Virus record (IMG/VR): IMGVR_UViG_3300037484_000333
Location: 1 to 64,000 of that record
DNA length: 64,000 nt
DNA from: a virus
Taxonomy: Duplodnaviria; Caudoviricetes
Direction: 5' to 3' (one strand)
This document shows positions 13,514-48,377 of this stretch, piece after piece (within the stretch, counting starts at the first letter, position 1; each line of letters starts with the position of its first letter). The translations under genes and the position numbers were made by a program. The notes beneath the pieces are model-generated. The model worked only from the letters and a program-made list of their open reading frames with translations, was not told the DNA's origin and did no database searches.

Positions 13514-14758
13514 ATAGCACCTACAGTCCAAACATCTGCTAGAACTTCGTATGGCGCATCTCCCAGTGGAGTCGTCAAGAAGCTTAATCTGGTTGAGTTT
13601 ATCGACCTGCTTACGCCGACTGAGGTTCCTGTTCTGAGCTACCTTGGGTGGGCTAAGGAAGCTGGTCCTGCAGCTGGAGCTGACTCGCTCAGTATCCCGT
13701 GCACCCAGCAAATCCACCAGTGGCAGAACGACGAACTGGTTCCGAGTGAGAGCACTATCGCGGCTGGAGAGACTGACAACCATGCTACCACTGGTAGCAT
13801 TACCCTGTCGGTAGCTACCGGTACTGGTGTCTACTTCCGGACTGGTGATGTCGTTATCGTTGATAGCGTCACCACCACTGAGAAGCCGAACACCTACCTG
13901 GTTACTGGGGTCTCTACTGATGCCCTGACCCTCCTGTTTGTTGCAGGAACTGCTACAGGCGAAACCGCCAGTCAGGTCATCAGGAAGATCGGACAGGCTT
14001 TCCCCGAAGGGACTGACATCGCCGACACAGGTGTTGCCCTTTACCGTAGCACGTCTATCAGCCAGACTGAGAATTATCCTCAGATTTGGTATGAAGTCGC
14101 TAAGGTTACAGGCAGCCTTCTGTCTACCGAGGTCTACGGTATCTCTGACCAGCTGGGCTACCAGGTCGAGAAGAAATTCAAGGAACTGGTAATTCAGATG
14201 GAGGGAGCCTTCATCTACGGACAGCGGCACGCCACCCTTAACTCTGATCGCTACACTGCTGGAGGTCTTGCCTACTTTGTGCGGGACAACGCTACCAACG
14301 CCACTAACGGCCTTTACCTGACAGCGGCTGGTGCGGCCCTCACTGAGAGCATGTTCAATACCCTACTGGAGAACGTTTGGAAGCAGGGCGGCAAGCCCGA
14401 CACTTGTTTCGTTAACAGCACCCAGAAGCGGTACATGAACAGCTGGCTAACCCCCTACGTTCGGACAGAACGAGATAACCGCGTAGCTGGCATCTTGACT
14501 TCCCAGTACGAATCGGACTTCGGGACTATCAACATTGTGCTTGACCGCAATGTTCGACAGTCCGACCTGATCATATGCTCGAAGGACAAGCTGGGTATCG
14601 GGCCTCTCAAGGGCAACGGTAAGGACAGGAGTTTCTTCTTGGAGACTCTGCCCAAGACCGGAGACCACGAACGGGCTCAGATCATCGGTGAGTACACCTT
14701 TGAAGTTCGTAACAACACCCAGGCTCACGGCTGGTACGCATTCTTGGCTACATCTTAA
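13514..14758 (+). CDS. Major capsid protein (DUF5309/SU10-like), 414 aa, apparent ATA start
   Basis: The ORF-track call 14198..14758 is only the C-terminus. The frame is open from 13514 (in-frame TGA at 13505) with SD AAGGAG 9 nt upstream; C-terminal IIGEYTFEVRN motif; no ATG/GTG/TTG in frame before 14198. Confidence 0.85.
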   Translation: MAPTVQTSARTSYGASPSGVVKKLNLVEFIDLLTPTEVPVLSYLGWAKEAGPAAGADSLSIPCTQQIHQWQNDELVPSESTIAAGETDNHATTGSITLSVATGTGVYFRTGDVVIVDSVTTTEKPNTYLVTGVSTDALTLLFVAGTATGETASQVIRKIGQAFPEGTDIADTGVALYRSTSISQTENYPQIWYEVAKVTGSLLSTEVYGISDQLGYQVEKKFKELVIQMEGAFIYGQRHATLNSDRYTAGGLAYFVRDNATNATNGLYLTAAGAALTESMFNTLLENVWKQGGKPDTCFVNSTQKRYMNSWLTPYVRTERDNRVAGILTSQYESDFGTINIVLDRNVRQSDLIICSKDKLGIGPLKGNGKDRSFFLETLPKTGDHERAQIIGEYTFEVRNNTQAHGWYAFLATS

Positions 14759-14768
14759 TAGAGCATTC

Positions 14769-14797
14769 TGAGGGGTGGAAGTAGCCTCCACCCCTCA
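14769..14797 (+). promoter_or_regulatory. 11-bp hairpin after the capsid gene (attenuator or mRNA-stabilising stem)
   Basis: TGAGGGGTGGA / TCCACCCCTCA inverted repeat; no U-tract. Confidence 0.5.
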
Positions 14798-14811
14798 CAG
14801 TGAGGTAAAAC

Positions 14812-14898
14812 ATGGGTAAAGACGTAAGGATTATGGCCCCACCTGCTAAGGCAGATGTCGCTATCGGGCCATCCAAAGAAGAGAAGAAAGGGGGTTAG
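14812..14898 (+). CDS. 28-aa small ORF
   Basis: SD GAGGT, ATG, MGKDVRIMAPPAKADVAIGPSKEEKKGG; fills the gap after the capsid gene. Confidence 0.5.
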   Translation: MGKDVRIMAPPAKADVAIGPSKEEKKGG

Positions 14899-16692: not shown

Positions 16693-18110
16693 TGGCTGAT
16701 GCCAATGTAATAGCAGTAGTCGGTACTGCTGACTCAGCGGCGGGTGTACCTACCGTTGGGTCTGGAACTTTATACTATGTCAGTGTGACTGAAGGGAACG
16801 ACAGTTATGACGGTACTTCACCGGTCTTTATTGATGGTACCATCGGTCCAAAACTGACTATTGCCGGTGCCGAAGCGATTGTCAAAGGAGCTGGTGATAT
16901 AGTTTATGTGGGACCTGGTACCTACTACGAAAAGGTGACACTAACCGATAGTGGGGTACTAGGTAGCCCTATTCAGTGGATTGCCGACCCGGAATGTTTA
17001 CATTGTACGGGGGACTTTCCTGGTGTTGTGAGGTGGTCTGCTGCAGATTCTGACGACACGCAGGGTACCACGCCTGCTCTCGACTTCGGTAGCGTCACCT
17101 ACGCTGAGGCGTGGGGGTTCATCTTCGACGGTACCTACAGCACAACCAAGGGCACGGTCCACCGGACGGGTGGGGCGGATTTGACCTGCAAGGTGTACGA
17201 CTGCATCGCGTCGGGCTTCAGTGGGATAAGGAACGTCTGGACGGCCCGCTGCTTAGCAATGGGAGCGACTTGTTTCGGCAGTTGCTACAGCGAAAACTGC
17301 ATCGCCCTTGGCGGGGCCTCCTATGGTTTCGGAGGGTGGGTGGACGGGTCGAGGAACAATCTGGCGATTGGGTGCTACATCGGGTTCAATCAGTCAGCCG
17401 CTTGGGCCATTACGATCTACAACTGCGTGGCCGTGGCCTGCAACATTGGCTTCTACGGCGGCGCTGCCGCTGACCAGCTGGCTGCACTCAAGTGCCACGT
17501 CTGCTATTGCCCGATAGGCTTCCAGGGCATGGTCATAACCGACTGCACCCGCGCTTTGTGCCAGGTTCCCTACACCGCGTGCACCGGCGTCACCACTGAA
17601 AGCGATGTGGTTGTCTTCCCGAACTTCGATCTCCTGAAGCGGGCGCTGGAGCCGCTGCCTACAGACAGCCTATATGAAGCTGGCAACGCTACCTACGTTC
17701 CTACCACCACCGACTTGCTCAATCGTACTAGGGTGGCTAATACTATAGACATTGGTCCCTATGAGCTGGCTTCAGTCTCCCTAGCTTGGTCAGTTGCTAG
17801 CTATTACGCAACACCGCCTAGTATCACCATGGTTGGTGTTGGGGAAAAGGTTATCCAGATTTCGGCTGAGAAGGACGTAGAGAAGACCATCAAGGTCTGG
17901 ACAAAATGTTCGACTGGAACCACCACAATGCCACAAATAATCCTTAGGGGTAAAAGTATATCTGCCCAAACCGATACTGTAGGTACCGCCAACGCGTGGG
18001 AACAGTTGACTGTTACTGCCACACCCACGATAAACGAGGTATTAGAGCTTATATTAAAAGGTCGGGAGGCGGCAAAGATTGTCTACTGGTCCGACTTCGA
18101 GGTTGTATAG
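16692..18110 (+). CDS. Beta-helix (pectin-lyase-like) tailspike/adhesin
   Basis: YYVS..GND..DG...P..TI..A...GDIVYVGPGTYYE N-terminal motif followed by Cys/Gly-rich helical rungs. Confidence 0.65.
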   Translation: MADANVIAVVGTADSAAGVPTVGSGTLYYVSVTEGNDSYDGTSPVFIDGTIGPKLTIAGAEAIVKGAGDIVYVGPGTYYEKVTLTDSGVLGSPIQWIADPECLHCTGDFPGVVRWSAADSDDTQGTTPALDFGSVTYAEAWGFIFDGTYSTTKGTVHRTGGADLTCKVYDCIASGFSGIRNVWTARCLAMGATCFGSCYSENCIALGGASYGFGGWVDGSRNNLAIGCYIGFNQSAAWAITIYNCVAVACNIGFYGGAAADQLAALKCHVCYCPIGFQGMVITDCTRALCQVPYTACTGVTTESDVVVFPNFDLLKRALEPLPTDSLYEAGNATYVPTTTDLLNRTRVANTIDIGPYELASVSLAWSVASYYATPPSITMVGVGEKVIQISAEKDVEKTIKVWTKCSTGTTTMPQIILRGKSISAQTDTVGTANAWEQLTVTATPTINEVLELILKGREAAKIVYWSDFEVV

Positions 18111-21100
18111 TTGCATATAAGGTTAACCACAGCCGGTGGACGCCTTCTAGCAAAGCTAGGCTGCACTGACCAATTAGTCTCGGCCGGTGGTGTTCTATAT
18201 GATTCACTACCTCTTAGCACTGTCATAGCTCCATCAGCTAGCACATTTTGGCGGGCTTGGTTCGGGCCTGCAGGTGAAGAAGGTAAGATACAGGTTGATG
18301 GTATTACCAACCTTCTAACTGGTACTTACCCTGACAAGACTACCAAGACCATGCCTGCAGGGTTCCGTAACATCCACGGTTGCGAGTACGCATCAGATGT
18401 CGATAGAGTTTTCTTGTGCACCCGTCTTGGAGCTACTGGCAGCACTGGCCCGTACCGCCTAATACGGATAAACCCCGATGACCTCGATGACTACGTTTAC
18501 TATGAGGCGTCTTCTGCAAACTACTGGCGTGCTGACTATCTAATGATAGTGGGTACCAGGGTCTTTGTGTTTTACCAAGACGCAGCCAACCCCACTAAAC
18601 TATTGATTGACGAGTTCGATACTGAGGATGATGCACAACCCCTAACCAAGGTCGCCACTCACGACCTTGGTACAACTTACGGTAGTGCTTGGCAGGCCGA
18701 TACCGACAACACTTATATGTATATCGGAACTGATGCTACCGAACTTTCCGGAACCGGTCACTACATTGTAAAGGTGCAGATCAGTGATATGACGGTGGTA
18801 GATAATGCCCAACTGACTGGTACTTGGGATGCCCACCGAGGAACCGGTAGTGTGCTCTATGACTCGGAAACCGGCTCTGTGTTTATGGGGTGTCAAGGTG
18901 GCGCATTTATCCATAAGGTTAGTGCATCAGACCTGTCTAGTGAAGTAGTCCAGGGATACCCGTTAAAACACCTTAATGGGGAAACGAAGTCCAGTGAACT
19001 TATATCAACTACTGGGTATATATACCTAACTCTAGAGGGTGGGGCAAGTGTCCCCAACTACGTCGAGGGGCACGTTCTCAAAATTAGCAAGACTGACTTG
19101 GCTGACTATGAGGTAATACAGGCCGGGTCTGCGTCTAACAAGTCGGGATGGGTAGGTTTGCCAGAGCCTGACGGTGACTATATCTGGGTCGGATGGGCTG
19201 AAGGGGAGTTTGTACGAATTAAGGTGTCCGATGGTAGCCAGCAACACTTCTGGTTTCCTGAAACCCAGGTAGCAGAAAGTTGTTTTGCAGGCAGCAGAAA
19301 CAAGTGGATACTGGGTACTTGGGACGACCCATGCAAGATAGTTAGAGTAGTCAACCATGTATCGGCAGATAATAGCCAACTCACCAGCTTAGCTCCACGA
19401 TCCTCATGGGTTCCTGTTAGGCTATTCACTCAAAAGGACGGAACTATTACCGCCCTAGAGGCCTATACCGATGGTAGCAATAGTCTCGGCACTGGAGTGA
19501 ACCTTAAAGGGAATACTGCTACCGACTATACAGAGCCCACCACTACCGAGCTTAACACCACTAATTATCCGACTTTAGCTGGAGCCACCGTTGACGCATT
19601 TGGTTGGACCTCCGGCTCACCTAAGTCCATTACAGGGTCGGCAACTGAAGCCGGTGATATCGGTGACTTCTTAGTCTTGCAAGTTAGCCTGGACTCTAAT
19701 GCAGCTGGATGTACTACACCAACTGATACTCTAACCCCCGTTTATACTACCGGCGGAAGCGATATAACCAAGACCGTAACTCTATATACAGAGTCAGAGA
19801 AGATCATATCAGCTGTCACGTCCACTGCTTCAGCTGCTGCCTTGTTGACCTCTGTCGCTGATAATATAGAAGTGCTTGCGGAAGTAGCTACTGTTAATGC
19901 AGCTGCCCTATCTCTAATAGTCGGTATTAGTAAAGCTATAGTTGTACCTGTTTCTGAGGCCGGTGCCACTGCCATTGCTCCTTCGACCTCAGCTGGAGTT
20001 ATCATACTACCAGATGTTGAAGAAGCCGACGCCGTAGTATTCTCGCCTCTGATCTCAATAGGCTTGGCTAGGGCTCCTCCGGCAATTGAGGCTGCAGCCG
20101 TTGCTAATATACCATCTATCTCCACAGAAGCTATCATTAGTGTACCTACTTCTACTGCGTCGTCAGAAGCGCCACCTCCAGAAATTCTGACTTCCGTAAC
20201 CTTTGCTATAGCGTTTGCAGAGGCCCCAATCCCCATCGTTACAACAGGAGCTACAATCACGTCTCCAGTGGCAGAAGCATCTGTAGAGACTTTAGCACCT
20301 GCTATCTCTACTGGAGCCGATGTCATACTTGAGCAACCAGCTATTTCGACAGCTGAGGCCCCTATTCCCACAATTTCGGCTAGTACTACCATATCCTCTC
20401 CAACCGCCACGGCCAGCTCCTCCATTGGTACTACCATCATCGGCATTGGTAAAGCTATTGCACCACCAGTTGCCACATCTAACGGTTCTGCAATTCCGCC
20501 CCTGAGGACTTATGGGGTCTACGTTCAAATCGACGGCGAGTCCAACGACGCCTATGAGTACGAGTTTAACGGCGGAGTCAACGTTGATAACTTCGAGATA
20601 TTAGTCGTATCAGACGCAAGTGCTGAAGACAGGTACTGGGGCGGCCTCCGATTTACTGGTGGAACTTGGCCTTCCTATGGCTCCACCATCACAGCAGCCC
20701 GTATCTCCATTCACATACCGTCTATAGTTGGAGACGACCCTAACTGTGACATCTATGCAGAGGCTTCGGCCAACCCGTCGGCATTCACCACCGCCACTAA
20801 TAACATCAGTGGCCGGACAAAGACCTCAGCCTCAGCTGAGTGGATAGCCAACGGTCTAGGAACAGGTTGGAAAAACTCTCCATCGCTAGTAACAATCATA
20901 CAGGAGCTTGTGGACTCTTACAACATTGAGTCTATAGCCCTAATAATACAACCTAATACTGACGTTAGTAAGTCCCTGATCATAGACGCTTGGGATGAAT
21001 CCTCTCACACCCTTGGGGCCATCCTACACCTGGAGTGGGAGGAGCCCAGCCTCGGTGTAACCTACGCAACCATAGCTACGTCTAGTGCGGCAGCCATAGC

Positions 21101-23828
21101 CCCAAGTATCTCTACGGGAACTACTATAGAGATACCGACAGCTGAGGCTAGCGCCGCTGCAGCCACAGTTGGAATTGGTGGTAGCACACAAATAGATGCG
21201 CCTGCAGCTAGTGCATCATCGGCTCTTATTGCACCGACAGCCTATGGTCGGTATGGGTGCACTATCAGTGTAAGTGCCAATACTGATGACGCTATGGAGC
21301 GAGAGTCGTCTGGAGTTGTTTGGACCGACGACTTCTATATATATGTGCAGTCCGATACTGATCAATCTACTAGGTATTGGGTAGGTCTAAGATTTACTGG
21401 TGGGCCGTTCCCCAATAGAGGGGATACCATTGATACTGCCTACCTGCGAATCAACGTCACTGACGAGATCGATGGTGATAACGCCAACCTAGACATATAT
21501 GCTCAAGACCGTGCTAACCCAACTACCTTCACCACCGATGCATACAACATTACTCGTAGTAGGCCCAGGACTTCTAGCTACACAGAATGGGTATCTGACA
21601 GCCTTGGCACTGGATGGGTTCAGTCACCGTCCATAGTTGACGTCATTCAAGAGCTTGTCAATTCCTATGACATAACATCAGTCGTCCTTACTCTCAGTCC
21701 GAATACCGACGCTACCAAACTCCTAACCCTGTGGGCTCACGATTGGTCTGGTGGTACTTTTGCTGCACAGCTGCATTTGGAATGGACTCCTCTATCGGGA
21801 GGTGTTTCCCCGACTGCAGCAGCAGATGCGGCGGCTCTAATCCCTTCGGTCCACGCTAGTTGCACAATAACTTCTCCAATTGCTACCGCGACTAGTGCTA
21901 CACCCACACCGACAGCCTCAACTGGCGCAGAAATACTATCACCAATTGCCACGGCTTCTGCCAACGCACTAATAATCTCCACTATCGGTGGAGTAAGCAT
22001 ATCCGCCGAGACATCTGAGGCCAGCGCAACCACACCAAACCCGTCTGTAAAGACTGGAGCCACCATATCATCGCCAGTTGCTACGGCCTCTGCTCAGGCT
22101 ATTGGGCCTTCCACATCTTATGGTACAACCATAGAAGCCGAAGTCGCCACCGCCACTGCTAGTGTGTTCAGCAGCGGAGGATCGTCTGTCATCTATCAAG
22201 TAGACCAAAGCTCAGATGACGCCGACGAGTACGCGCAGGCAGACGGGCTTGTAGTACCAGGCGGGACTTCCGTACGGGTAATAGTGGGAATTGCTACGTA
22301 TTGGGGGGGAGTGCGGTTTAGGACTGGGAGTTTCCCAACTCTTGGATCGACGATCACCAGTGCCTACCTAACGATTCAGTGCAGGGACGAGTCTGTTGAT
22401 GATGCAAACTTTGAAATCTATGGGGACGATAGGGAGGACCCGTCGACCTTCACTGACACCAATTACGACATATCGAGCCGGACACTGACGTCGGCCTTTG
22501 TGTCGTGGGTTGAAGATAGTATAGGCGCTGGGTGGGCACAGTCTCCCTCAATCGTCGATGTGATCCAGGAGCTGGTAGACGCCTACAACGTAGCATCCAT
22601 CGCCTTGGTACTGAAGCCTCTGAGCGGGAGCAGGCTAGCTAGGTTCCATTCTTGGGATGAGGCCAGCCACGTCCTCGGAGCAAAGCTATACCTAACGTGG
22701 GAAGGACCTCTCGTATCCACTGGGGTTACGGTTGTTCCGGACGAAGCGGCAGCCAGTGCCGAAGCCCTTGGACCAAATATTGGTGGAAGTCTAACTGTAT
22801 ACGCTACCGTATCTGCATCCAACGCAGATGCCCCAATACCGGTAATCTCAGTTGGTTGCACAATCTCAGTACCAGTTGCTGAGGCGAACGGGGAAGCGTA
22901 TCCCGCATCGACTGCCCTTGGATGGGCTCAAATATTTGCAGAGGTATCCGTTGCAACAGCAGAAACCCCAGCTCCAGAGTTTGGTGGAAGTGCTACAATA
23001 CTGGCAACTGTTGCCCAAGCCTCTGCCGAAATACAACTACCCACAATAGACCTGGCAGTACCAGTCCCAACATCTACGGCCAGTGCGGCCACACCGGCTC
23101 CAACGCTATCGGCTGGAAGTTTAATAACCTCACCAGTAGCCCAATCCTCTGCATCAATACCGACAGTGGCAGTCGCAGCTGGAACGACTATTCCAGTACC
23201 TGTGGCCACTGCAGGTTGTGTAGCCAAGACTTCGACAATCCATACTGGGGTAACCATATCTCCGCCAAGAGCTGTTGCCAATGCTACAGCCCGTACTGCT
23301 ACAGTCGGGGTAGTTGCCCACGTTGGTGTTACAGCCACAGTTGCTACGGCTTCTGCCGAAACTCCTACCCCTATGATCCAGTGGGAAGTATGGACCTTAG
23401 AGTTGGGTACGAGCCTACCGTCTGTTCTAGCCAAACAAGGACTGTGGGGTAAATATCTACCATCGGCTGCTAGGATAGACAACATCGTTGGTCCTACGAT
23501 GGTCAACAACGGGCTACACAGCGGGCTGGTTGTAAGAGTCAGGATTACGAGTACCACTGGCGCACCCACCGTGACTCCAGAAATGCACTACTGGGACTCT
23601 GGTTCGGGCAAGTGGGTAAGCTACATTAACGGCCCACAATATAGTGCCACTGGCGAGTTCGAGTGGATTTTCTCACCGATAGGTATTGCTACCACCAATT
23701 GGTCTCCTATGGGATCAGGTAACATAACCAGAATGATAGCTCCAGTACCTGCTGTATGGAGGGTAGGGTTCTATCACGGCAATACCGATAGTATAACTTA
23801 TAGCGCAATGTATCAGTACATGGCATAA
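18111..23828 (+). CDS. 1905-aa tail fibre/adhesin with propeller-like N-terminus, A/S/T/P spacer repeats and three copies of a globular domain
   Basis: Repeats visible in the translation (DDAxE...YWxGLRF...QELV..Y...AxLxLEW, three times). Confidence 0.65.
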   Translation: MHIRLTTAGGRLLAKLGCTDQLVSAGGVLYDSLPLSTVIAPSASTFWRAWFGPAGEEGKIQVDGITNLLTGTYPDKTTKTMPAGFRNIHGCEYASDVDRVFLCTRLGATGSTGPYRLIRINPDDLDDYVYYEASSANYWRADYLMIVGTRVFVFYQDAANPTKLLIDEFDTEDDAQPLTKVATHDLGTTYGSAWQADTDNTYMYIGTDATELSGTGHYIVKVQISDMTVVDNAQLTGTWDAHRGTGSVLYDSETGSVFMGCQGGAFIHKVSASDLSSEVVQGYPLKHLNGETKSSELISTTGYIYLTLEGGASVPNYVEGHVLKISKTDLADYEVIQAGSASNKSGWVGLPEPDGDYIWVGWAEGEFVRIKVSDGSQQHFWFPETQVAESCFAGSRNKWILGTWDDPCKIVRVVNHVSADNSQLTSLAPRSSWVPVRLFTQKDGTITALEAYTDGSNSLGTGVNLKGNTATDYTEPTTTELNTTNYPTLAGATVDAFGWTSGSPKSITGSATEAGDIGDFLVLQVSLDSNAAGCTTPTDTLTPVYTTGGSDITKTVTLYTESEKIISAVTSTASAAALLTSVADNIEVLAEVATVNAAALSLIVGISKAIVVPVSEAGATAIAPSTSAGVIILPDVEEADAVVFSPLISIGLARAPPAIEAAAVANIPSISTEAIISVPTSTASSEAPPPEILTSVTFAIAFAEAPIPIVTTGATITSPVAEASVETLAPAISTGADVILEQPAISTAEAPIPTISASTTISSPTATASSSIGTTIIGIGKAIAPPVATSNGSAIPPLRTYGVYVQIDGESNDAYEYEFNGGVNVDNFEILVVSDASAEDRYWGGLRFTGGTWPSYGSTITAARISIHIPSIVGDDPNCDIYAEASANPSAFTTATNNISGRTKTSASAEWIANGLGTGWKNSPSLVTIIQELVDSYNIESIALIIQPNTDVSKSLIIDAWDESSHTLGAILHLEWEEPSLGVTYATIATSSAAAIAPSISTGTTIEIPTAEASAAAATVGIGGSTQIDAPAASASSALIAPTAYGRYGCTISVSANTDDAMERESSGVVWTDDFYIYVQSDTDQSTRYWVGLRFTGGPFPNRGDTIDTAYLRINVTDEIDGDNANLDIYAQDRANPTTFTTDAYNITRSRPRTSSYTEWVSDSLGTGWVQSPSIVDVIQELVNSYDITSVVLTLSPNTDATKLLTLWAHDWSGGTFAAQLHLEWTPLSGGVSPTAAADAAALIPSVHASCTITSPIATATSATPTPTASTGAEILSPIATASANALIISTIGGVSISAETSEASATTPNPSVKTGATISSPVATASAQAIGPSTSYGTTIEAEVATATASVFSSGGSSVIYQVDQSSDDADEYAQADGLVVPGGTSVRVIVGIATYWGGVRFRTGSFPTLGSTITSAYLTIQCRDESVDDANFEIYGDDREDPSTFTDTNYDISSRTLTSAFVSWVEDSIGAGWAQSPSIVDVIQELVDAYNVASIALVLKPLSGSRLARFHSWDEASHVLGAKLYLTWEGPLVSTGVTVVPDEAAASAEALGPNIGGSLTVYATVSASNADAPIPVISVGCTISVPVAEANGEAYPASTALGWAQIFAEVSVATAETPAPEFGGSATILATVAQASAEIQLPTIDLAVPVPTSTASAATPAPTLSAGSLITSPVAQSSASIPTVAVAAGTTIPVPVATAGCVAKTSTIHTGVTISPPRAVANATARTATVGVVAHVGVTATVATASAETPTPMIQWEVWTLELGTSLPSVLAKQGLWGKYLPSAARIDNIVGPTMVNNGLHSGLVVRVRITSTTGAPTVTPEMHYWDSGSGKWVSYINGPQYSATGEFEWIFSPIGIATTNWSPMGSGNITRMIAPVPAVWRVGFYHGNTDSITYSAMYQYMA

Positions 23829-24288: not shown

Positions 24289-24558
24289 ATGCACCCACGG
24301 TTGGGCAAGTTGCAAGAGAGGATTGATAGGGGTGGTGGGAAGGTTGGTATGCCAGCGCTCATAGAACTTGCTAATGCTCTTGACGAGGTGCTGACAAGGC
24401 TGGAGAGGATAGAAGGTTTGCTACCACCCATAGAGGCTTATATGGTACAGGAGACAAGGACCAACGAGATAGCATCAGTGGAGAGTGTATTGAACTTAGC
24501 GAGGAGACTACAGAAGGTAGAAGCGGAGGTAAGTAGAAATCGACGTACAGTGGGTTAG
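24289..24558 (+). CDS. Small coiled-coil protein
   Basis: SD GGAGG then ATG 24289; heptad-like sequence. Confidence 0.55.
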   Translation: MHPRLGKLQERIDRGGGKVGMPALIELANALDEVLTRLERIEGLLPPIEAYMVQETRTNEIASVESVLNLARRLQKVEAEVSRNRRTVG

Positions 24559-25390
24559 CCTAGAAGAACTTAAAGACGAAATACGGACTTACCTGAGGGA
24601 CTCTAGTACCACTGACCCACGGTGGACAGATGCCGAGATATTCCAGTCCGTCAGGGATGGTATCAGGCTGATGTCTCCGTTTGTCTTTACCACTGATGAC
24701 TATGAACAAGTAGTTACTTCCGGTACTTACCGATATACCCTGCCTGATTACGTCTACAAGGTTAGGAGTGTTAAGGGTAGAGATACCAGTAGTACTGGTG
24801 ATTGGACAGACCTTAGTTACTGGGAACAGGTCAGAGGAGTAACCAATAACTACTTCTATATTAGACGGTCGTATGGTGATTGGACTCTTATCCTTAAGTA
24901 TGATAGGAATATGCCAGAGGTTATCGGCAACCTGATATTGGGAGGTGATATGACCAACTCCGCTGCCGAGATGACGTTGGCGGCAGCCTCAGATAGCACG
25001 GCGGTAAGGTTGGAATCATTTGGGTACTTGAAGGTTGGCAATGAGATCGTGTCTCATACTGGGGTTTATGATACTAGTACCCACAAGCTGACAGTCTTGA
25101 CTAGAGGGCAAAGAGGCACTACTGCTGTGGTGCATACTAGTGGGGATGAGGTCAGCCCCATGATAGAAGTACCTAGCTCCAGGATTTATCCCTGGCTTAT
25201 AGACTACTCTATGGGGAAACTGCACAGGATGCGACTGACGGGAGTGGCCAGTGCAGACCTGGCAGGGGATGTTACCGCTATGAGGGAATATGACGCTGCG
25301 GCTGAGAGGAACTTGAGAAGGATTATACCACCTAAAAGTAGCAGGATCATATTCGAGAGGCCGAGGCGCTATTGGAAGAAGAGTACATAG
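24539..25390 (+). CDS. Head-tail adaptor/tail tubular-like protein, probable near-cognate (ATC) start
   Basis: Frame open 44 codons upstream of ATG 24671, encoding SLEELKDEIRTYLRD...RWTDAEI (typical adaptor N-terminus); in-frame TAA at 24530; SD GGAGGT 8 nt before ATC. Confidence 0.65.
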   Translation: MDVQWVSLEELKDEIRTYLRDSSTTDPRWTDAEIFQSVRDGIRLMSPFVFTTDDYEQVVTSGTYRYTLPDYVYKVRSVKGRDTSSTGDWTDLSYWEQVRGVTNNYFYIRRSYGDWTLILKYDRNMPEVIGNLILGGDMTNSAAEMTLAAASDSTAVRLESFGYLKVGNEIVSHTGVYDTSTHKLTVLTRGQRGTTAVVHTSGDEVSPMIEVPSSRIYPWLIDYSMGKLHRMRLTGVASADLAGDVTAMREYDAAAERNLRRIIPPKSSRIIFERPRRYWKKST

Positions 25391-28300
25391 TTGGCTGACC
25401 TATCTGACGCTGGGACTAAGTATGACCTGGTCCTCGACGACCTAGGTCTTATGCTAGCTGGCCTTATGACAAGGGTTGAGGTTACCAACCTCATGCCCAG
25501 GGTCTCTATGGCCACAGACCAAAAGCAATACCACGACTTCTCAGAGCTGGAGGTATTCGGCCAGCAGAACTTCCATCATGGCAGAGGACAGCTTAACATG
25601 GAAGAGACTGACCGCTTCTATGACAGCTGGAACATGGACTTGCGGTTTCCTGGTAAAGCCTTTCCAGCCCTCGCTCCTACAGAGTCAGGAGACCTAGCCG
25701 GTGCTATTAACGATATGGTTTATTACGAGCACCACGCTGGTACTGGTAGAGATAGGACCTTGTTTGCAGTGGCAGAGACTGGTGCTGCTACCACCACCAA
25801 TACTATTACCGCCAGTGCTGATGACGTTGAGGAGGGAAGTGACACCACCTACGACGCCACATCTACCACTGCTAAGGTGGGGGCATACCCAGCTGCTGTT
25901 ACAGTTAACATCCCTATCGACTCTGGAGCCTACGATGCGTATCAGATATATTACCAGCTAGCTTACACCGAGTATCCAACAGGTAGTAACCTAAGAGTAG
26001 GCACCGACTACTCTCCATATGGATCGGCTAAACAAAGATCATACCTCAGCTTCCCAACTGGTGATAGTTTGCCTGATGGTGTGACGATTACTTCTGCCTC
26101 ACTGTTCTTCTACCTAGAAAACAATTATACTAACACGAACTTCAACCTTAGGGTTCGTAAGCACCCTGGATGGACACCAACACTAGCAGACGATGACTGG
26201 AGGACTGATGGGCACCAACTAAACGCCGATTGGAGTACTGTTCAACTAACCAGCGGGTGGCACGAGATATCTCTAAATGCCAGCCCATCCTATCTGACTG
26301 ACATCAGTTCTACAGCCAGGACTGAGCTTTGTTTAAGTAGCGATAGGGAGGAGACAGGGGCTACCGTAACCCACGATGAGTACTTCTCCATGTACTCTTA
26401 CGAGTATGGCGATCACTCCAGGGCTCCATACTTGAGGGTTACCTATACTTCAGGACTTGGTAGCTTCGACATGGGATTGAGGTTCCAAAGCGTGGCAATA
26501 CCTAATGCTGCCAACCCTACCTCCGCTAAGATAACGGTGAAGGTTAGTGAGGTAATAGCCTCCACCGCCGTAAGGATTTATGGGTTGATGGAATCAGCCG
26601 GACAAGCTTCGTTGGATGCATTTAGCTCGTCTACTGATAGGCCGTCACAAAAGCTTAAAACCGCCAGCTACGTGGCGTGGACTGTATCTACTAGTGGAGT
26701 TCAAGATACACCAGACTTATCCACTGTGGTCAATGAGATAGTAGATAAGGCTACTTGGGCTTCTAACAGCCATATGGGATTTGTGTTCTTAGACCAGGGT
26801 AATGCCGAAAACCATTACTGTAAGATAGTTACCTATGATGGAGACCCAACTAACGATGCCGTTCTCACCGTAGACTATACCGGTAGTGGGGCCAATAAGA
26901 TTTACTACCTCCACTCCAGTACTTCCGTGTGGACTGACGAAGATGCGACACCTGGAACTACGGGTCTAGCTACTAGTGGTGGAGGTGGATCAGACGTTGA
27001 GGTCTTTAATCATATGCTGGTAGTGGCCCAACATAACACAGCTAATGCCAGGAAGTATAGGCCAGGGGACACTCCTGCGTGGGACGACCTGGGAGTTAAG
27101 GCCAAGTTCTTCAAGACCCATGACGGCTGCCTATGGCGGGCTACCTACAACCCTACCGAAACGCTGGGAGTGCAGTCACCAAGGTGGGAAGTCCACTATT
27201 CTGCCAATGCCGATGCCGACACACCCACATGGTCTGAGATAACCTTGCTACGATCTCCAACACCCATAACAGGTCTAGACTCATATTCCAACCTCCTTAC
27301 CGTCCACTATGAAGATGGTATGTGGCAGGTTGAGAAGGACCCGCAAGGGAGCTATAGAGCCTTCAGGCCTATCAACCAAACGCCGGTAAGAGATGTGTAT
27401 AATGGTAGAGCCCATGTTGTATTCAAAGAACGTTACTACTATTCAGAGCGGCATGGCATGGTTGAATACGATGGTAATGGTATTCAGTATATGGGGCCTG
27501 ATAGAGCAGACATAGACCCTGAGTTGGACCCTAATAGCATGAGCCTTGTGGCTTCAAATAGGGGGCCAATCATAGGCCTGACTCAAGATGGGGAGTTCAT
27601 GTGGGCATTGACCTACTCTCCATATACCTATACCCCCAACCAGAATGTGTTGGTGTTTAACAGCCAGGGGTGGAGTCACTATGCTTCAGGTCCTTCTGGT
27701 ACAGCCTCTAACAATGGTGTCATACACTACCAAGCTAGGATAATTGCTTCATCTAATCCTAAGCTTAATAGCTATGATACCCTATGGTTTACTGCAGGGT
27801 CCAAGATATACTATATAGCGTTTGACCCATACTTCAGGGACCCGTCAGCCTACGACGCAGTCAATGGTAGTGCCTTCCAAACCTCCTGTAAACTGAAGAC
27901 CAGTTGGCACGGCCCACTACCTATAGTACCTAAAAACTGGATGCGGCTACTGGTTGACTGGACAAGGGTAGAGGGCATAGTATCCTCCCTGTCCGCTACG
28001 TTCATAAACGATGGTGGTAATGGGCTGGCCCTCCCCACCATATACTCATCTGGGTTGTTAGAAACTAACATACCATTTGGAAACCTGAGTTTGGAGGGGG
28101 TAGTTGGTAGGCGTGCTAGGTGCATATTCACACTTACTACCGCTGCTTCTACCTACAGCCGTCCACCTATGTTTAACGGTTACAACTACCGGTATGCTTA
28201 TAGACCGTCTCCTAGGTTGGGGTGGACTATACCAGCAGCTGTGTACGCTGAGCAAGACCTGTTGGATAGGACTAAGGAGTCAGTGGCTACACTAACCACC

Positions 28301-32058: not shown

Positions 32059-32059
32059 G

Positions 32060-32230
32060 TTATTTCACCTCCTCGCCTTCGTCGTTTGGATAAAGGAGGC
32101 TAAAGATGTCATGTAGCGGTACCTCTATCCTGTATGAACGACCATCTCTGTCCTCGGCTGTGACTATCAACAAGTCTTCACCTTCACGTAGCTTGACAGG
32201 ACACAAGATGATCGGTCTCACACTTACCAT
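32060..32230 (-). CDS. 56-aa hypothetical protein
   Basis: TAATG overlap with the upstream stop; MVSVRPIILCPVKLREG... Confidence 0.5.
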   Translation of the reverse strand: MVSVRPIILCPVKLREGEDLLIVTAEDRDGRSYRIEVPLHDIFSLLYPNDEGEEVK

Positions 32231-36195: not shown

Positions 36196-36435
36196 CTATA
36201 TTTTCTCCTCTTCCTTAGCGTCAGCCTTATCACAAAGCTCTATCAGACGGTGGAGGCAAGGTAGGCATAGGTCGCCGCTACCCAGAAACGGTTGACTGCA
36301 ATATCCACACTCGGAGCAATCGTCGGGGAGGTACCCACCCCCACCATAACCACTACTGCCCGCCCTCTCTAACCAGTAGAGTTCTGAGCGTTCAGCCTTT
36401 GTTAGTCTTTCCCACCATTCCTTTGTGCGTTTCAT
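36196..36435 (-). CDS. Small Zn-finger protein
   Basis: CxxC and CxxC motifs. Confidence 0.55.
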   Translation of the reverse strand: MKRTKEWWERLTKAERSELYWLERAGSSGYGGGGYLPDDCSECGYCSQPFLGSGDLCLPCLHRLIELCDKADAKEEEKI

Positions 36436-36923
36436 GCTTCTACCATAAACTTGTGCTGTTTCTTACTATAATACCGGAACATTTCGAGTAGCTGAATTCC
36501 CAGCCTAGCGGGACAAGGACAGTAGTCGATGATGACCCCTTCATGCTGAATTGATTTCGCCATTCCTGACCAAGTTGCCCACCTAAGTCTAGGCTTGTCA
36601 CCATAAGAAGTCTTGACCCAACCATCTGGAGTCTCGCCAAGAATGCCGGTGACCAGTAGTATTGGTACAGGGTATGCCTCCTTAAGTCTAGATAGTTGGT
36701 CAGCCAACCTACTTACCGGTATGCCCTTACGACCCTTACCTAGAGCTGAGGATATGAGGTCTTCTCCAGTCTTCCTCTCTATACCTACAGTGGTTACTGG
36801 TGTTATCATCAGTATGTCGGCTGACGGCAAGGCTTCCTCTACTACCTCCAGTCCGGCTTTCTCAAGGTACTTACGGACGGAGGCCCTTAGGGCTTTAGGG
36901 TCGCGGGTGTCGAGGATAACTAT
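36432..36923 (-). CDS. ERCC4/XPF-family nuclease, apparent ATA start
   Basis: VILDTRD...LPSADI...GIERKT; ATA overlaps the upstream TAG (ATAG); in-frame TGA upstream. Confidence 0.75.
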   Translation of the reverse strand: MVILDTRDPKALRASVRKYLEKAGLEVVEEALPSADILMITPVTTVGIERKTGEDLISSALGKGRKGIPVSRLADQLSRLKEAYPVPILLVTGILGETPDGWVKTSYGDKPRLRWATWSGMAKSIQHEGVIIDYCPCPARLGIQLLEMFRYYSKKQHKFMVEA

Positions 36924-40094: not shown

Positions 40095-40865
40095 TTAGGC
40101 CGCCTGGATTTTACCGGCTTCGTCAGTGGTGATGTACCCAGCGTCTTCCATCAGCTTGAGGACCTTACCATTGGCAATGGTGACCCGCACGTTAGTAGGG
40201 ATACCAGCCTTATTGGCAAAGTTGCTCATAGCTAGGATGGAAGCCTGCTTGGTCTTACCAACTGCTACATCCACTAGGTCTGTGGCATAGTCTTCCCAGG
40301 AGCCAGACATCTTAGCTCCGGCTTCCTCAACAACTGGCTCAATCTCTTCAGCCTCACCATCGGCAGTAGTGGAGTTGATACTATTGAGCACGGCCTCTAC
40401 TTCCTTGGTGTCGTACTCCATCCCGTGGCCTACAAGCTTAACCGGGTAGGTGTAGACCCTAGACCTAGAGGCTCCAGGAGACATCTCACTACGGCCTAGC
40501 ACCAAGTAGATGTTATCCACTAGTGCCTTCTTGAGGTTCTCAGCGTTCTCTGCTGGAGAGTTGCCACCCTTGATGGTTGTGCCAGCATCCCTACAGGCTA
40601 GGGCGAACTGTCCTAGAGGGCTGTTAGGGTTGACCTTACCCATTGCTGGATAGTTGAAGAAGACAGTCATCTCACGCTGATTACCGGCTTCATCGGTCTC
40701 ACCTAGTCTGGCCCACCGGACTACGACTGATCTGCTGGTGAAGGAACCACTACCATCCTTCCGCTCGATTTGCTCAGAGCGGTAAATGGCCTCCTCACAC
40801 CTGCCTACGAAATAGAACTCGGTACCCAGATCATCTGGGGCCAAGCTCGGAATGGTCTCGGTCAA
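40095..40865 (-). CDS. Putative ssDNA-binding/replication protein
   Basis: Position between helicase and exonuclease, strong SD; inferred from context only. Confidence 0.4.
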   Translation of the reverse strand: MTETIPSLAPDDLGTEFYFVGRCEEAIYRSEQIERKDGSGSFTSRSVVVRWARLGETDEAGNQREMTVFFNYPAMGKVNPNSPLGQFALACRDAGTTIKGGNSPAENAENLKKALVDNIYLVLGRSEMSPGASRSRVYTYPVKLVGHGMEYDTKEVEAVLNSINSTTADGEAEEIEPVVEEAGAKMSGSWEDYATDLVDVAVGKTKQASILAMSNFANKAGIPTNVRVTIANGKVLKLMEDAGYITTDEAGKIQAA

Positions 40866-40912
40866 TCAAATCACTCCTTATCTTTGACCGTACTAAACTG
40901 TCCTATACCTCT

Positions 40913-43050: not shown

Positions 43051-43264
43051 GTTCCCAACCCTCCTTAACCTTTATCAAGTATGCGATAGTTGGTAGGTCG
43101 CGTAGTACCAACATCTTAATCCTGAAGGTACCATTGTAGGTGGACATAAGGCGTATTCCCCTACCCCAGTCGACCCATACCTGTGGCCCCTTAGTGTAGA
43201 GGGAGGTAACTACCAGCCCAGTCTTGTGTGATAGGTAGGCGAGCTGTTCTTTACTTAGCTCCAA
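43001..43264 (-). CDS. Hypothetical protein
   Basis: Contiguous ORF. Confidence 0.45.
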   Translation of the reverse strand: MELSKEQLAYLSHKTGLVVTSLYTKGPQVWVDWGRGIRLMSTYNGTFRIKMLVLRDLPTIAYLIKVKEGWERERELCGIAAKRQIIH

Positions 43265-43510
43265 TCATACCACTACCTCGTACTTGTAACTGAAGGTGAA
43301 GCTGCAAGCGGAACAACGGGCTCTATAATCTACTATAAACTTTCCCTTCCAAATTCCTACCTCCCAGTCCTCTCGGAGGTCGTCGCACTCAGGACTGGCT
43401 TCCAGTAGGTCCTCGTACTCTTGGGGTGTGACCTTCCCATAGGCTTCGGATAAAGTCTTCTCCCTACTCGCCTTACACTTAGGGCAGATGGTGTAGTTGT
43501 TGGCGCTCAT
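43265..43510 (-). CDS. Zn-ribbon protein
   Basis: CPKC...CSAC. Confidence 0.55.
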   Translation of the reverse strand: MSANNYTICPKCKASREKTLSEAYGKVTPQEYEDLLEASPECDDLREDWEVGIWKGKFIVDYRARCSACSFTFSYKYEVVV

Positions 43511-44538: not shown

Positions 44539-45102
44539 CTAGCAACGCGAGTTGCCGCAACCCCAGCATTTTAGGCAACCTTCTTCGTGGACCATAATAG
44601 ACCCACACTCTGGACAACACACACCGGAGCTATTACGTATCGGCACGATCAGTGTCTCTATAGTGGTTTCACCTGGTGGAGGTGGGGGAGAATCGAACTC
44701 CCCGTCCTGAAGAGGGTTAGCCCCGTACTCCGAGACATCTTCTTCAGTCTTCCTTTCACCCCCAAGAAACCTTCGCTCAAGCCACTGAGCAATGTAGTCT
44801 AGTATACTAGTCGCCTTCGGAATATCAGGGTTACTAGTCAATCCAGCAGGGTCATACCGAGTCTGTTTGAACTTCCGCGTTATGTCTTCCAGTGGGACGT
44901 GGTACTGTAAGGCTATCGAAACCATGATAGCGAAGGCGTCCACCAACCCGCTGACTGTTGACCCCTGCTTACTTACAAATACAAAGAGTTCTCCTGGTGT
45001 GCCATCCTCGAACAACCCTACTATAAGGTAGCCTGACTGGTCTGCTATTTTGAACTTATGTGTAACACTGTTTCTGTCAGCCGGTAGCCTCTTCCTCTTC
45101 GT
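44539..45102 (-). CDS. Stand-alone class II RNR (NrdJ) C-terminal TSCPD-like domain plus Zn ribbon, apparent ACG start
   Basis: RLPADRNSVTHKF...GLFEDGTPGELF...SKQGST...SIALQY...SILDYI; C-terminal CPECG...CLKC..C; in-frame TGA at 45109-45111 and SD GAGGAG. Confidence 0.8.
   Translation of the reverse strand, partial: TKRKRLPADRNSVTHKFKIADQSGYLIVGLFEDGTPGELFVFVSKQGSTVSGLVDAFAIMVSIALQYHVPLEDITRKFKQTRYDPAGLTSNPDIPKATSILDYIAQWLERRFLGGERKTEEDVSEYGANPLQDGEFDSPPPPPGETTIETLIVPIRNSSGVCCPECGSIMVHEEGCLKCWGCGNSRC
44674..44763 (-). ncRNA. tmRNA tRNA-like-domain mimic embedded in a CDS
   Basis: GGGGGTG/CACCTCC acceptor stem with G3:U70, ACCA end, GGAC, GGGGAG-TTCGATT-CTCCCC T-arm, TGAAGA/TCTTCA helix. Confidence 0.65.
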
Positions 45103-45301: not shown

Positions 45302-45495
45302 ACTAACAACCTATCGCCGGAATAATAAAGGGTTGGGTGCGTAGAGTACAATGGTACGCAATACCAGACTGTAACCCGCCCACCATCGGACTGGATGGTA
45401 GTATAACCTCCAGCATGGGACATATTCCTGATACGTCCTCTGGCCCCATAGTACTTGAACATGGCTGTCATACCTGATACAGTTTTCAACCCCAT
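45298..45495 (-). CDS. Small protein with YYGARG motif
   Basis: Motif shared with the adjacent ORF. Confidence 0.5.
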   Translation of the reverse strand: MGLKTVSGMTAMFKYYGARGRIRNMSHAGGYTTIQSDGGRVTVWYCVPLYSTHPTLYYSGDRLLV

Positions 45496-47483
45496 GTTTG
45501 ACCTACCTTCACCTTGAATCGTATGGGCAGCATGAACTCAACAGTCTTGGCTACCTCGTGTACCGCTTCTTCTAATTCACGCACCAACTTCATAGGACAG
45601 TAGTAGTCTAGCGAATCGTGAATCTGGTCGAAAAAATGCGCCCCTAGCTGTTGGGCATACTTGTCCATACGCACCATGCAGACCTTTATTATATCACCAG
45701 ACGCAGTGCTCTGCACTACTCCATTAGCTAGTTCCTTGCGGGCATGGCTCCTGGTACGCGGGTCGTTAGACTGTATGGCCTCAAAGTACATACGGTGGCC
45801 TAACCAGGACTCTGCATACCCACGTTCCATGCCCTCAGCTATGATACCTTCTTGCCACACCCTCAGTACGTGGAGCTTACCTCTTACTATCTGTAGCCTT
45901 CTTCTAGCCTCTTGCAGCTCCACATTGTCACGTTTAGCGCACTCCCTCTCACTCAACCCATATATACCTGCAAAGTTATACACCTTGCCGGTCTTACGTT
46001 GTGTAGGTGAGGGATAATCAGTATTAAAGATAAGTCCACCCGTCATACTGTGGAAGTCTTCACCAGCTAGCCAAGCCTCGACCATTATAGGGTCCCAGCT
46101 AAGGCCAGCCATGACTACCATCTCTAGCTGGACGGCGTCAGCACTTACTATGGCATACCCTTCTGGTGGGACGACCGCGAGCTTTTGCTCCGCCGTGAAG
46201 TTTTGGGTGTTTGGACCTTCACTAGCGACTCTATTGGTGATAGCCCAAGTTGTCTTGAAGCTAGGATGTAAGCGAGAGTCTGGATAAAGATGGTCGAGGA
46301 TGACTCTCCACAGAGTCTTCGACGATCCGGCTTCTTTAATAGACAGTACCCTGTCAACCAGATCGCTAGTTCCTTTAAGGTGGGCAAGGGCTTTGGACCC
46401 TGTAGAGCGCGCACCTGCTGGCGTAAAGACTCTAGCTCTGAGTCCAAGATCATCAAACAGTAGTTTCTCAAGTTGCTTGGGGGATCGGTGATGGACGGGG
46501 AAGGTGGCTGCAAGGTGTCGTTCAAGTCTATCCAACCCTTCTATTTGGGCCTCAACAAACTGTCGGTCTATCAGTATACCGTGCTTCTCAGCCTTTGTCA
46601 ATATAGATTGGACTGGGAGATCAATATTGAGGTACCTATCAGCTGACCCAGTCTCTAGCATCTTGGGCCATGTGTACTCCAGGTGTAGCCGACGTGTGGC
46701 GTCTGCATCCATACAGGCGTATGGGTACAAGCTGTCAAGGTCGTCCGCTATTACCTCTGTCCACTCCCGCATCTCCAAGCCAAGGTGTTCCCTGGCCAGT
46801 CGCTTCAGACCACTGCTTCCACGATAGTGACCGAGCAAGAAGGCTTGGAGCTTGGTATCATGGTAAGTGAGACTGTCGGGGTCCCATCCAAGGAATAGCT
46901 GATCGAAAGGTGCGTTGTGAAATACAAGAGTCCGGTGTCGGAGCGCGGACCATAACTCCTCAGTCTTGAAGCAGTCGACTGGAATGTAACAGCCAGTCCC
47001 TGGAGCCACAGAGAGAGAGACTCCAAGGAGTCCGTCACTGACGGGCTTAAGTCCAGTAGTTTCTGTGTCGATTCCGACAAGTTCTTCACTCCCTAAATAC
47101 TCCACAACCTCAGCAAGGGTAGTGACGAGGCGGTAGTCGCCTGTGGTGATTGGTCCTGGAGGATTTATTGGTACACCTATAGGACCACTAACTACCGCCT
47201 CGTCAGGCTGGACCTTACACCCTGCCTTCTTAACTATTACCTCTCCTGGGTGGGGTGAGGGCTTAATCCAAATAGTCTTCTTATCAGCGATGGCCAAGAC
47301 CGAAAGTACCGCCGAGCCCTTAGTGTCTTGTTGGGCATACTCGTAGATACCCTCAACCCCACCCAGTTCACGAAGAGAGGCCGAAATTAATACGTTGACA
47401 TACTGGGAGGCTAGGTCCTCAGACAGGTTGAAGTGTGTAGAGGCCCAGTCTTTAACCGACAGTACGTCAACGAAAAGAAACAG
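45486..47483 (-). CDS. polA: Family A DNA polymerase with 3'-5' exonuclease, probable CTG start
   Basis: IDTETTG exo I, ADAVQLE motif A, KVYNFAGIYG motif B, QIHDSL motif C; frame open 62 codons above TTG 47297 to a CTG 7 nt after AGGAG. Confidence 0.9.
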   Translation of the reverse strand: MFLFVDVLSVKDWASTHFNLSEDLASQYVNVLISASLRELGGVEGIYEYAQQDTKGSAVLSVLAIADKKTIWIKPSPHPGEVIVKKAGCKVQPDEAVVSGPIGVPINPPGPITTGDYRLVTTLAEVVEYLGSEELVGIDTETTGLKPVSDGLLGVSLSVAPGTGCYIPVDCFKTEELWSALRHRTLVFHNAPFDQLFLGWDPDSLTYHDTKLQAFLLGHYRGSSGLKRLAREHLGLEMREWTEVIADDLDSLYPYACMDADATRRLHLEYTWPKMLETGSADRYLNIDLPVQSILTKAEKHGILIDRQFVEAQIEGLDRLERHLAATFPVHHRSPKQLEKLLFDDLGLRARVFTPAGARSTGSKALAHLKGTSDLVDRVLSIKEAGSSKTLWRVILDHLYPDSRLHPSFKTTWAITNRVASEGPNTQNFTAEQKLAVVPPEGYAIVSADAVQLEMVVMAGLSWDPIMVEAWLAGEDFHSMTGGLIFNTDYPSPTQRKTGKVYNFAGIYGLSERECAKRDNVELQEARRRLQIVRGKLHVLRVWQEGIIAEGMERGYAESWLGHRMYFEAIQSNDPRTRSHARKELANGVVQSTASGDIIKVCMVRMDKYAQQLGAHFFDQIHDSLDYYCPMKLVRELEEAVHEVAKTVEFMLPIRFKVKVGQTWG

Positions 47484-47498
47484 TTGGTAACTCCTAGT

Positions 47499-47744
47499 TT
47501 ACTTTTGGCCTATTGTCAGGAGCCGACCTACGCCATAGGCCACTACTATCAATAAGCTTGCAGCAATGAGCAGAGGCCACATAACGGCAATAACCCCAGC
47601 CATACACAGGTCTGCTGTCTGGTCGCTAAGTTCCCCTCTTAGGTTTCTTGACGCCTCGTTCCTGATATAATGCCTTGCAAGAAGGCTTCCAAGGATGAGG
47701 TAAAGGACTGACAACCCCACAATGGATGTTATGGTTACTAACAA
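47499..47744 (-). CDS. Two-TM membrane protein
   Basis: Two hydrophobic helices. Confidence 0.6.
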   Translation of the reverse strand: MLVTITSIVGLSVLYLILGSLLARHYIRNEASRNLRGELSDQTADLCMAGVIAVMWPLLIAASLLIVVAYGVGRLLTIGQK

Positions 47745-47753
47745 GTTGTGCTC

Positions 47754-48377
47754 CTATCTAGGCCAGCAGGACCACTCCCATTGCCGACCTACACTAACAA
47801 ACCACGCTGCCGCTTCCCAAGCCACTGTCCTGTTACATGGGTCGGCAGCGGCAAAGGGTGTGGTAGCCCAGGTGCTCGGCATAAATTGAAATGGACCTAA
47901 CTCACCTGAGCTACCTACCTTACATTCCTCATATTGGTGGCGGCTCTCGCACCACTCGACATACCATAGGGTGTCAAGAAACTGTTCTACATTATACTTA
48001 GAAACCGCAACTTGCGCTAATCTTGGGGGAGTCTCCCCGTTGTTCGGGATTGGATGTTGTCCTCCCACCCCTGAAGGTACCCCGCCTTGTACCACTCCTT
48101 CAGGACTTCCTCCAACTTCTCCCTGTCCTTGTACCACGGTAGCGGGTTCAGCCGACGCCACCATAATGCTATCACTTGCGGCAATGAGATCAACTGTCGT
48201 AAGAGGCACATGGTTTATACTCCGAACAAGATCAAAAGGTTGAGCCATAAGAACACTGCGATCAACTTCGTTAAGAAGTCTATCATAGTCCTCCCTACTA
48301 TCTACCTGCAGGCTAACCGCCGAACACCCTATAGCTATGGCTATGAGTATTGTGGCTATCAGCGGTAGGAGCCTCAG
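47754..48377 (-). CDS. Secreted/lipoprotein lysozyme-like (SLT/Rpf-type) transglycosylase, apparent CTG start
   Basis: WCES catalytic Glu and GPFQFMPSTW; the upstream extension gives signal peptide MRLLPLIATILIAIAIGC; GGAGG 7 nt before a CTG that overlaps the upstream TGA. Confidence 0.75.
   Translation of the reverse strand: MRLLPLIATILIAIAIGCSAVSLQVDSREDYDRLLNEVDRSVLMAQPFDLVRSINHVPLTTVDLIAASDSIMVASAEPATVVQGQGEVGGSPEGVVQGGVPSGVGGQHPIPNNGETPPRLAQVAVSKYNVEQFLDTLWYVEWCESRHQYEECKVGSSGELGPFQFMPSTWATTPFAAADPCNRTVAWEAAAWFVSVGRQWEWSCWPR

Follow-up and report, generated by a model that had tools for sequence, protein, structure and literature searches.

Initiation at codons that differ from AUG at a single position is known from bacteria. 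The Escherichia coli genes infC, which encodes initiation factor 3 (IF3), and pcnB both start with AUU behind a Shine-Dalgarno (SD) sequence, and NCBI translation table 11 lists alternative starts. In both genes a single-mismatch codon is read by the ordinary initiator tRNA, and its use depends on proofreading by IF3. These are isolated regulatory cases in genomes dominated by ATG. Here we analyzed the uncultured phage of IMG/VR virus record IMGVR_UViG_3300037484_000333 (72,634 bp), in which near-cognate codons behind SD sequences probably serve as start codons. In contrast to infC and pcnB, such codons occur here on nine or more genes, roughly every tenth gene, one of which encodes the most abundant virion protein; ATG is in the minority and no autoregulatory logic is evident. 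The window referred to below comprises bases 1-64,000 of this 72.6 kb record, and positions are those of the window. Near-cognate starts as such are already known. What is new is their density, their presence on capsid, portal and polymerase genes, and the genome-wide loss of the preference for ATG. In the literature searched, no phage was found for which near-cognate starts are reported to be pervasive.

Mitochondria routinely start at AUA and AUU, using a modified tRNA-Met, a specialised IF3mt and leaderless mRNAs. The common feature is the use of AUA-type starts in bacterial-type translation; nothing like the modified tRNA-Met, IF3mt or the leaderless mRNAs was found in the phage record. 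In E. coli, non-canonical codons do initiate, at 0.01-2% of AUG (bioRxiv 10.1101/063800). Unlike these measurements, the capsid and portal genes described here would imply that initiation is far more efficient or that the cellular setting differs. Phages can act on the initiation factors themselves. In infection by the Thermus phage phiYS40 IF2 goes up and IF3 goes down, and T7 gp0.7 phosphorylates IF1-3 (PMC3594737). The parallel lies in a phage that shifts the balance of initiation factors in favour of its own unusual mRNAs, and lower IF3 would relax start choice. However, leaderless AUG mRNAs are favoured by phiYS40, whereas the starts found here are SD-led and non-AUG, and an effect on IF3 is presumed. 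An SD precedes every site but one in the present phage, which does not support leaderless translation of the phiYS40 type.

The gene for the SU10-type major capsid protein (MCP) is located at 13514-14758 on the plus strand and encodes 414 aa, of which residues 22-409 match Pfam PF17236 (SU10_MCP, E 4e-65). The open frame extends from 13508 to 14758, and the first ATG, GTG or TTG in it is codon 230. The initiation region (13499-13516, plus strand) consists of the SD AAGGAG at 13499-13504, a 9-nt spacer and ATA at 13514-13516, with an in-frame TGA at 13505-13507. In the alignment with 12 homologues the ATA occupies the column of Met1, and the sequence after it aligns residue for residue. At the DNA level, the codon at this position is ATG in 40 of 40 related IMG/VR loci (about 40% MCP identity). 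One explanation would be that the proteins begin at downstream canonical codons and that the upstream in-frame stretches are untranslated leaders, open by chance. Gene callers indeed chose the downstream codons, and the public products are truncated accordingly (MCP 186, family A DNA polymerase (PolA) 603, ERCC4-type nuclease 125, adaptor 239, portal 609 and an ORFan 106 aa). For the MCP this is impossible, as 228 of the 414 residues of a conserved fold would be lost.

In the MCP gene, the first 228 codons (window 13514-14197) contain no in-frame ATG, GTG or TTG, against eight in the last 186 (p = 0.0015); about 11 would be expected. The same stretch holds 2-7 Met residues in homologues and two Met in a relative with 88% identity. 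The stretch free of canonical codons may be due to chance or to a lineage-specific avoidance of internal starts. Once ascertainment was allowed for, the MCP alone stood out for scarcity of downstream canonical codons, and the near-cognate genes as a group showed no general shortage of in-frame canonical codons downstream.

Two more virion genes support the same reading. The head-tail adaptor gene (24539-25390, plus strand) opens with ATC, 8 nt behind the SD GGAGGT. Residues 8-110 correspond to positions 3-102 of Pfam PF24175 (SU10_adaptor); an ATG first occurs at residue 45, 44 codons downstream. Four relatives, each with an SD-led ATG, have their Met1 at the position of the ATC. The portal gene is a ninth case, in addition to the eight of the initial annotation, and lies beyond the window at genome positions 69973-71913. 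It starts with an ATA that overlaps the terminase stop (ATAG), with the SD GGAGG 9 nt upstream. Homology to the portals of two relatives sets in after about five residues, and no ATG occurs before residue 38. Thus, for the adaptor and the portal as well, homology begins upstream of the first canonical codon, contrary to what untranslated leaders would predict. The near-cognate codons of MCP, adaptor and portal all fall on Met1 of relatives with ATG starts or directly beside it.

On the minus strand, the lipoprotein gene (47754-48377) starts with CTG, 7 nt behind the SD GGAGG and overlapping the upstream stop (CTGA). Directly after the CTG comes a signal peptide that includes a lipobox Cys; an ATG is first reached 43 codons further on. 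This signal peptide contradicts an untranslated leader. The protein is possibly a lytic transglycosylase, but the earlier label 'SLT' found no family or PDB support. A stand-alone TSCPD gene, similar to the C-terminal part of class II ribonucleotide reductase (44539-45102, minus strand; Pfam PF12637, PHROG 23565), starts with ACG, 10 nt behind the SD AGGAG. The first TTG follows 29 codons downstream, and homology to MW202622 and to Thermus phage TMA_041 runs from the opening of the open reading frame (ORF), again upstream of the canonical codon. The gene had been labelled an NrdJ fragment. It is rather a stand-alone TSCPD protein, a form also found in an annotated phage homologue of 156 aa. 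A borderline Rfam match to tmRNA (48.3 bits, cut-off 47) was noted at 44674-44763 on the minus strand, in the non-conserved TSCPD linker. It was absent on rescanning of 44600-44850, and ARAGORN reported nothing there.

The gene for the ERCC4-type nuclease (36432-36923, minus strand; Pfam PF02732) has two candidate starts. ATA 36923 overlaps the upstream stop (ATAG) and lacks an SD, whereas ATC 36917 is preceded by AAGG at a distance of 8 nt. Residues 8-120 correspond to PF02732 positions 2-111; as no canonical codon occurs before a TTG at residue 32, homology begins upstream of it here too. The relatives P0017, from a JGI contig of 15.2 kb, and P0019 and P0020, from Logan contigs, share 84-88% identity with the protein in the multiple alignment, and P0017 is 89% identical by BLASTP. 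The relative with 89% identity, seen only as a protein, has Leu at the position of ATA 36923. The ERCC4 gene call of a sibling contig, whose start codon itself was not seen, opens one codon after the ATC position. The relatives fit a start inside this three-codon neighbourhood.

The PolA gene (45486-47483, minus strand) starts with CTG, 7 nt behind the SD AGGAG and 15 nt past the upstream stop; the first TTG lies 62 codons downstream and lacks an SD. The 62-codon extension has normal coding usage and a weak likeness to the hydrophobic-Asp N-termini of three distant relatives. A library-wide search gave alignments only from about residue 83, the sole full match being the window's own truncated call, and the N-terminal 100 or so residues are not broadly conserved. 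A LAGLIDADG gene with a single motif, homing-endonuclease-like (31297-31665, minus strand; PHROG 5046), starts with CTG, 9 nt behind the SD AGGTG and 6 nt past a TGA-TAA that ends the upstream gene. Both the LAGLIDADG motif and the PHROG 5046 match (residues 21-115) begin ahead of the first GTG at residue 51. This could be a decaying gene. The ORFan (31672-32058, minus strand) starts with ATA, 6 nt behind AGGAGGTGA, the strongest SD in the genome; a homologue search with its product gave none. In a single-sequence AlphaFold2 model (pLDDT 75) a strand at residues 10-18 precedes the first TTG at residue 23. The modelled fold is a generic beta-sandwich, and the former description as decoration-like is unverified. 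The initiation regions of the capsid gene (13497-13519) and the ORFan (32053-32075, minus strand) are nearly identical (GGAG(G)TGAAAYAACATAGC), with an Ala codon next in both.

Taken by gene, the case for a required N-terminus is strongest for MCP, adaptor and portal. It is less strong for PolA, the ORFan and the LAGLIDADG gene, whose extensions are without broad homology backing, as leaders that are open by chance would be. However, all nine extensions show coding usage in the proposed frame and in neither of the others, and the downstream canonical codons are mostly without an SD. The proposal in the initial annotation that eight genes have a required N-terminus between an in-frame stop and the first ATG, GTG or TTG was borne out for all eight, by homology, Pfam and PHROG coordinates, the signal peptide, the predicted strand and codon usage. 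We regard untranslated leaders as scarcely conceivable.

The near-cognate sites share several properties. An SD match of 5-9 nt with an aligned spacing of 6-11 nt was found at eight of nine sites, ERCC4 being the ambiguous one; among the eight genes noted initially, most of which had been said to have an SD, the number is seven. Every near-cognate codon is a single mismatch from ATG. As a measure of chance, SD-like pentamers are spaced about 130 nt apart on average inside genes, and in 24% of cases ATA, ATC, ATT, CTG or ACG follows in frame 4-11 nt downstream. The probability of obtaining all eight SD-led cases by chance is near 1e-5. Like canonical starts, the sites lie within a few codons of the ORF opening. 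Eight of nine are at most 26 nt from the stop of the upstream gene, and three form ATAG or CTGA overlaps, both of which are real as first described. Nine cases are a lower bound, because about half of the genes with a canonical start have another in-frame canonical codon within 20 codons, which would hide a near-cognate start ahead of it.

The unusual start choice was not restricted to these genes. In a curated tally, restricted to starts preceded at proper spacing by an SD of 5 nt or more, we counted 13 TTG, nine GTG, eight ATG and nine near-cognate codons. ATG thus accounts for about one fifth of the SD-led starts, and the early remark that GTG and TTG are very common proved correct. An uncurated count of the codons behind such SDs at ORF openings gave TTG 15, GTG 8, ATA 7, ATG 5, CTG 4 and ATC 3. 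The same script applied to three related phages returned 23, 26 and 13 ATG and very few others. Taken together, the SD-adjacent initiator-type codons here comprise five ATG and 37 others, compared with 62 ATG and 15 others in the three relatives (Fisher p = 1.7e-13). The TTG starts are independently backed by Pfam models that open at residues 3-10 (VWA, D12 methyltransferase). Internal Met codons occur at a normal 2.1%. Thus ATG is not avoided as a word, and only the preference for it as a start is gone. Many TTG starts directly abut or overlap an upstream stop as TAG-TTG, TGA-TTG or TTGA (18108-18113, 25388-25393, 33868-33871, 36193-36198, 40863-40868 and 43262-43267).

These counts also bear on the quality of the sequence. 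Errors in sequencing, assembly or polishing could have converted ATG to ATA, ATC, CTG or ACG, and the record is indeed a single metagenomic contig in which each site was seen in one copy. However, about 0.4% of the genome consists of start codons. For nine of them to be struck at random, substitutions would have to number in the thousands, but ORFs of 2831, 1905 and 1210 aa are intact, which also speaks against gene decay. A single systematic motif is ruled out, since the four different substitutions occur in unrelated contexts, and the shift to TTG and GTG over dozens of genes cannot be an error. We therefore give the error explanation very little credence.

Based on these observations, we consider it likely that the near-cognate starts are real and are used in SD-directed initiation by the ordinary initiator tRNA in a low-stringency setting. 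The 30S subunit would be placed by ordinary SD pairing, often aided by coupling to the upstream stop. The ordinary initiator fMet-tRNA (anticodon CAU) would then pair with a codon one position off AUG, with the mismatch at the third position in AUA and AUC, at the first in CUG and at the second in ACG. Proofreading of the start codon, a function of IF3, would be weak in the infected cell, and AUG would have little or no advantage over single-mismatch codons. This would account for the drift of the whole phage away from AUG, with TTG ahead of GTG among the SD-led starts and GTG, ATG and near-cognate codons about equally frequent. We infer initiation with fMet-tRNA and low stringency from the sequence. 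That all codons are a single mismatch from ATG would be the signature of pairing with the ordinary CAU anticodon. Predicted duplex energies were -9.6 kcal/mol for near-cognate and -10.4 kcal/mol for canonical starts, and spacing and local folding were alike. As SD strength, spacing and folding are the same as at canonical starts, the near-cognate codons may not be much weaker in this system. Near-cognate output in E. coli is 0.01-2% of that of AUG, so the host or the infected state would have to differ from E. coli.

Several points weigh against this interpretation. Near-cognate starts were compared with canonical starts for a stronger SD or a more open mRNA, and no difference was found, so that no compensation is visible. 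Internal SD-like pentamers on the coding strand occur at an observed/expected ratio of 0.93, compared with 0.73-0.82 in three related phages (G001, G002 and G004). Such weaker avoidance is unexpected if the SD alone selects start sites. At E. coli-like efficiency, capsid output would seem too low unless the host differs. ATG is retained at the start of the MCP gene in all 40 of the more distant relatives, and on the aligned sequences the trait is lineage-specific. For ERCC4, TSCPD, the LAGLIDADG gene and the ORFan, it is less certain which codon is used, or even that the extension is translated.

Some of these points would be expected if the starts are real and the cell is not specially permissive. 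Slightly or moderately deleterious substitutions would then have been fixed by drift or hitch-hiking and be tolerated via coupling, strong SDs and abundant late mRNA. The close upstream stops with their three ATAG or CTGA overlaps agree with such tolerance, weaker avoidance of internal SDs than in relatives is expected under weaker selection, and the ATG at the MCP start in all more distant relatives is likewise in line with it. In contrast, a genome in which ATG makes up about a fifth of the SD-led starts and TTG is the commonest resembles an equilibrium without an ATG advantage rather than a few lapses. Capsid initiation at about 1% of the normal level would be strongly and not slightly deleterious, and the long ORFs give no other sign of relaxed selection. 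Fixation by drift in an ordinary cell is thus unlikely in our view.

We also considered a non-standard decoding device, such as reassignment or read-through of stops, a frameshift or hop, intron splicing, RNA editing to AUG or an initiator-like tRNA. In favour of such a device, several ORFs abut in one frame with a single stop between them, the phage carries a homing-endonuclease gene, and the MCP of a close relative has a 216-aa in-frame insertion, so that mobile elements occur in the clade. The shared frame of neighbouring genes mimics read-through and represents tight translational coupling. Reassignment or read-through was rejected: TAA, TAG and TGA each end supported genes, and recoding any of them joins no homologous pieces. 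The PolA N-terminus does not derive from the in-frame upstream ORF, which is an unrelated two-helix membrane protein. A frameshift fusion, tested for the MCP, was dismissed, because in-frame TAA 13478 and TGA 13505 bracket the stop of the scaffold gene at 13491. Intron- or intein-split genes were discarded as no Rfam intron family was detected, the near-cognate codons are at positions homologous to Met1, and TSCPD is a known stand-alone form. ARAGORN, run over the whole 72.6 kb, found no phage tRNA or tmRNA, and hence no initiator-like tRNA. As four different codons would require several devices, this explanation appears very improbable.

The low stringency that we favour could be set by the host or by the phage, and the two are not separable from sequence. 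The initial annotation had offered relaxed start-codon discrimination by the host, altered initiation fidelity by the phage, or weak starts as a timing switch. Relaxed discrimination fits the genome-wide usage. A simple late-gene timing switch found no support, since replication and virion genes both carry near-cognate starts (PolA, ERCC4, TSCPD and lipoprotein on the minus arm; MCP, adaptor and portal on the plus arm). The two divergent arms of genes meet near 60.1 kb. Within 6 kb of this point, the start tallies were ATG 12, GTG 7, TTG 4 and near-cognate 0, and beyond it ATG 18, GTG 16, TTG 21 and near-cognate 9. Near-cognate starts thus occur in 0 of 23 versus 9 of 64 genes (p = 0.10), and ATG in 12 of 23 versus 18 of 64 (p = 0.045). 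The trend gives a weak hint of a phage-induced change, if early timing of the central genes is assumed. A six-frame search with positive controls did not find a phage homologue of IF3_C or IF1, and none of about 55 scanned proteins had a translation-factor-like Pfam domain. Tentatively, AUG would lose its privilege in infected cells, where an SD and any codon one mismatch from AUG would be sufficient. The cause could be lax proofreading by host IF3 and initiator tRNA, or a phage product acting after the ATG-rich early genes. This extended proposal is possible but doubtful.

If the interpretation is true, bacterial-type initiation can work with AUG as one of about eight nearly equivalent start codons, even for a protein present in hundreds of copies per virion. 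It would bear on natural variation in IF3 proofreading and on whether phages tune it. Whether due to the host or to the phage, it would be an example from nature, at the scale of a genome, of relaxed choice of start codons in bacteria, with core virion and replication genes hidden from standard gene callers. For annotation, the result would point to a blind spot. Capsid, portal, adaptor, polymerase and nuclease are public only as truncated products, and the full-length capsid is absent. Such phages would be mis-annotated, and homology screens with a length filter would overlook their core genes. The compact natural initiation regions, in which an SD is followed by ATA, ATC, CTG or ACG, would be usable as probes of start-codon stringency across hosts and extracts.

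The record has 127-bp direct terminal repeats and a G+C content of 51%. According to Pfam and PHROG, it encodes a T4-type large terminase in addition to the SU10-type MCP and adaptor, the portal and the family A DNA polymerase, and further an XPD/DinG-like helicase, nucleases, two adenine methyltransferases and many proteins without a family. Two giant ORFs of the virion module, at window positions 4195-12690 (2831 aa) and 18111-23828 (1905 aa), have no Pfam match. Beyond the window, a 47-codon ORF at genome positions 67084-67227 contains no ATG, GTG or TTG, and an ATT lies 7 nt behind an AGGAG; it is possibly a further near-cognate small gene.

The best matches among cultured phages are at about 30-32% protein identity or below and are spread over many hosts. 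Look-alikes of the ERCC4 protein in the protein atlas are viral. Alignment-based scans of IMG/VR and JGI metagenomes returned relatives with at most 42% identity over a near-full-length match only, and one metagenome-assembled genome in GTDB matched at 30% identity. Single-protein scans of IMG/VR and JGI metagenomes did not return a close DNA-level relative, although close relatives exist as proteins (ERCC4 89% and MCP 88% identity). The contig of the 88%-identical MCP relative ends before the N-terminus. The 216-aa insertion is found in P0022, the 88%-identical capsid protein encoded on a JGI contig of 5.8 kb, which aligns to window 13640-14755. The insertion sits between the conserved motifs GEY and TFE(I/V)RNNTQ and ends with a second copy of RNNTQ. 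Probably the gene caller translated through an intron or another mobile element here.

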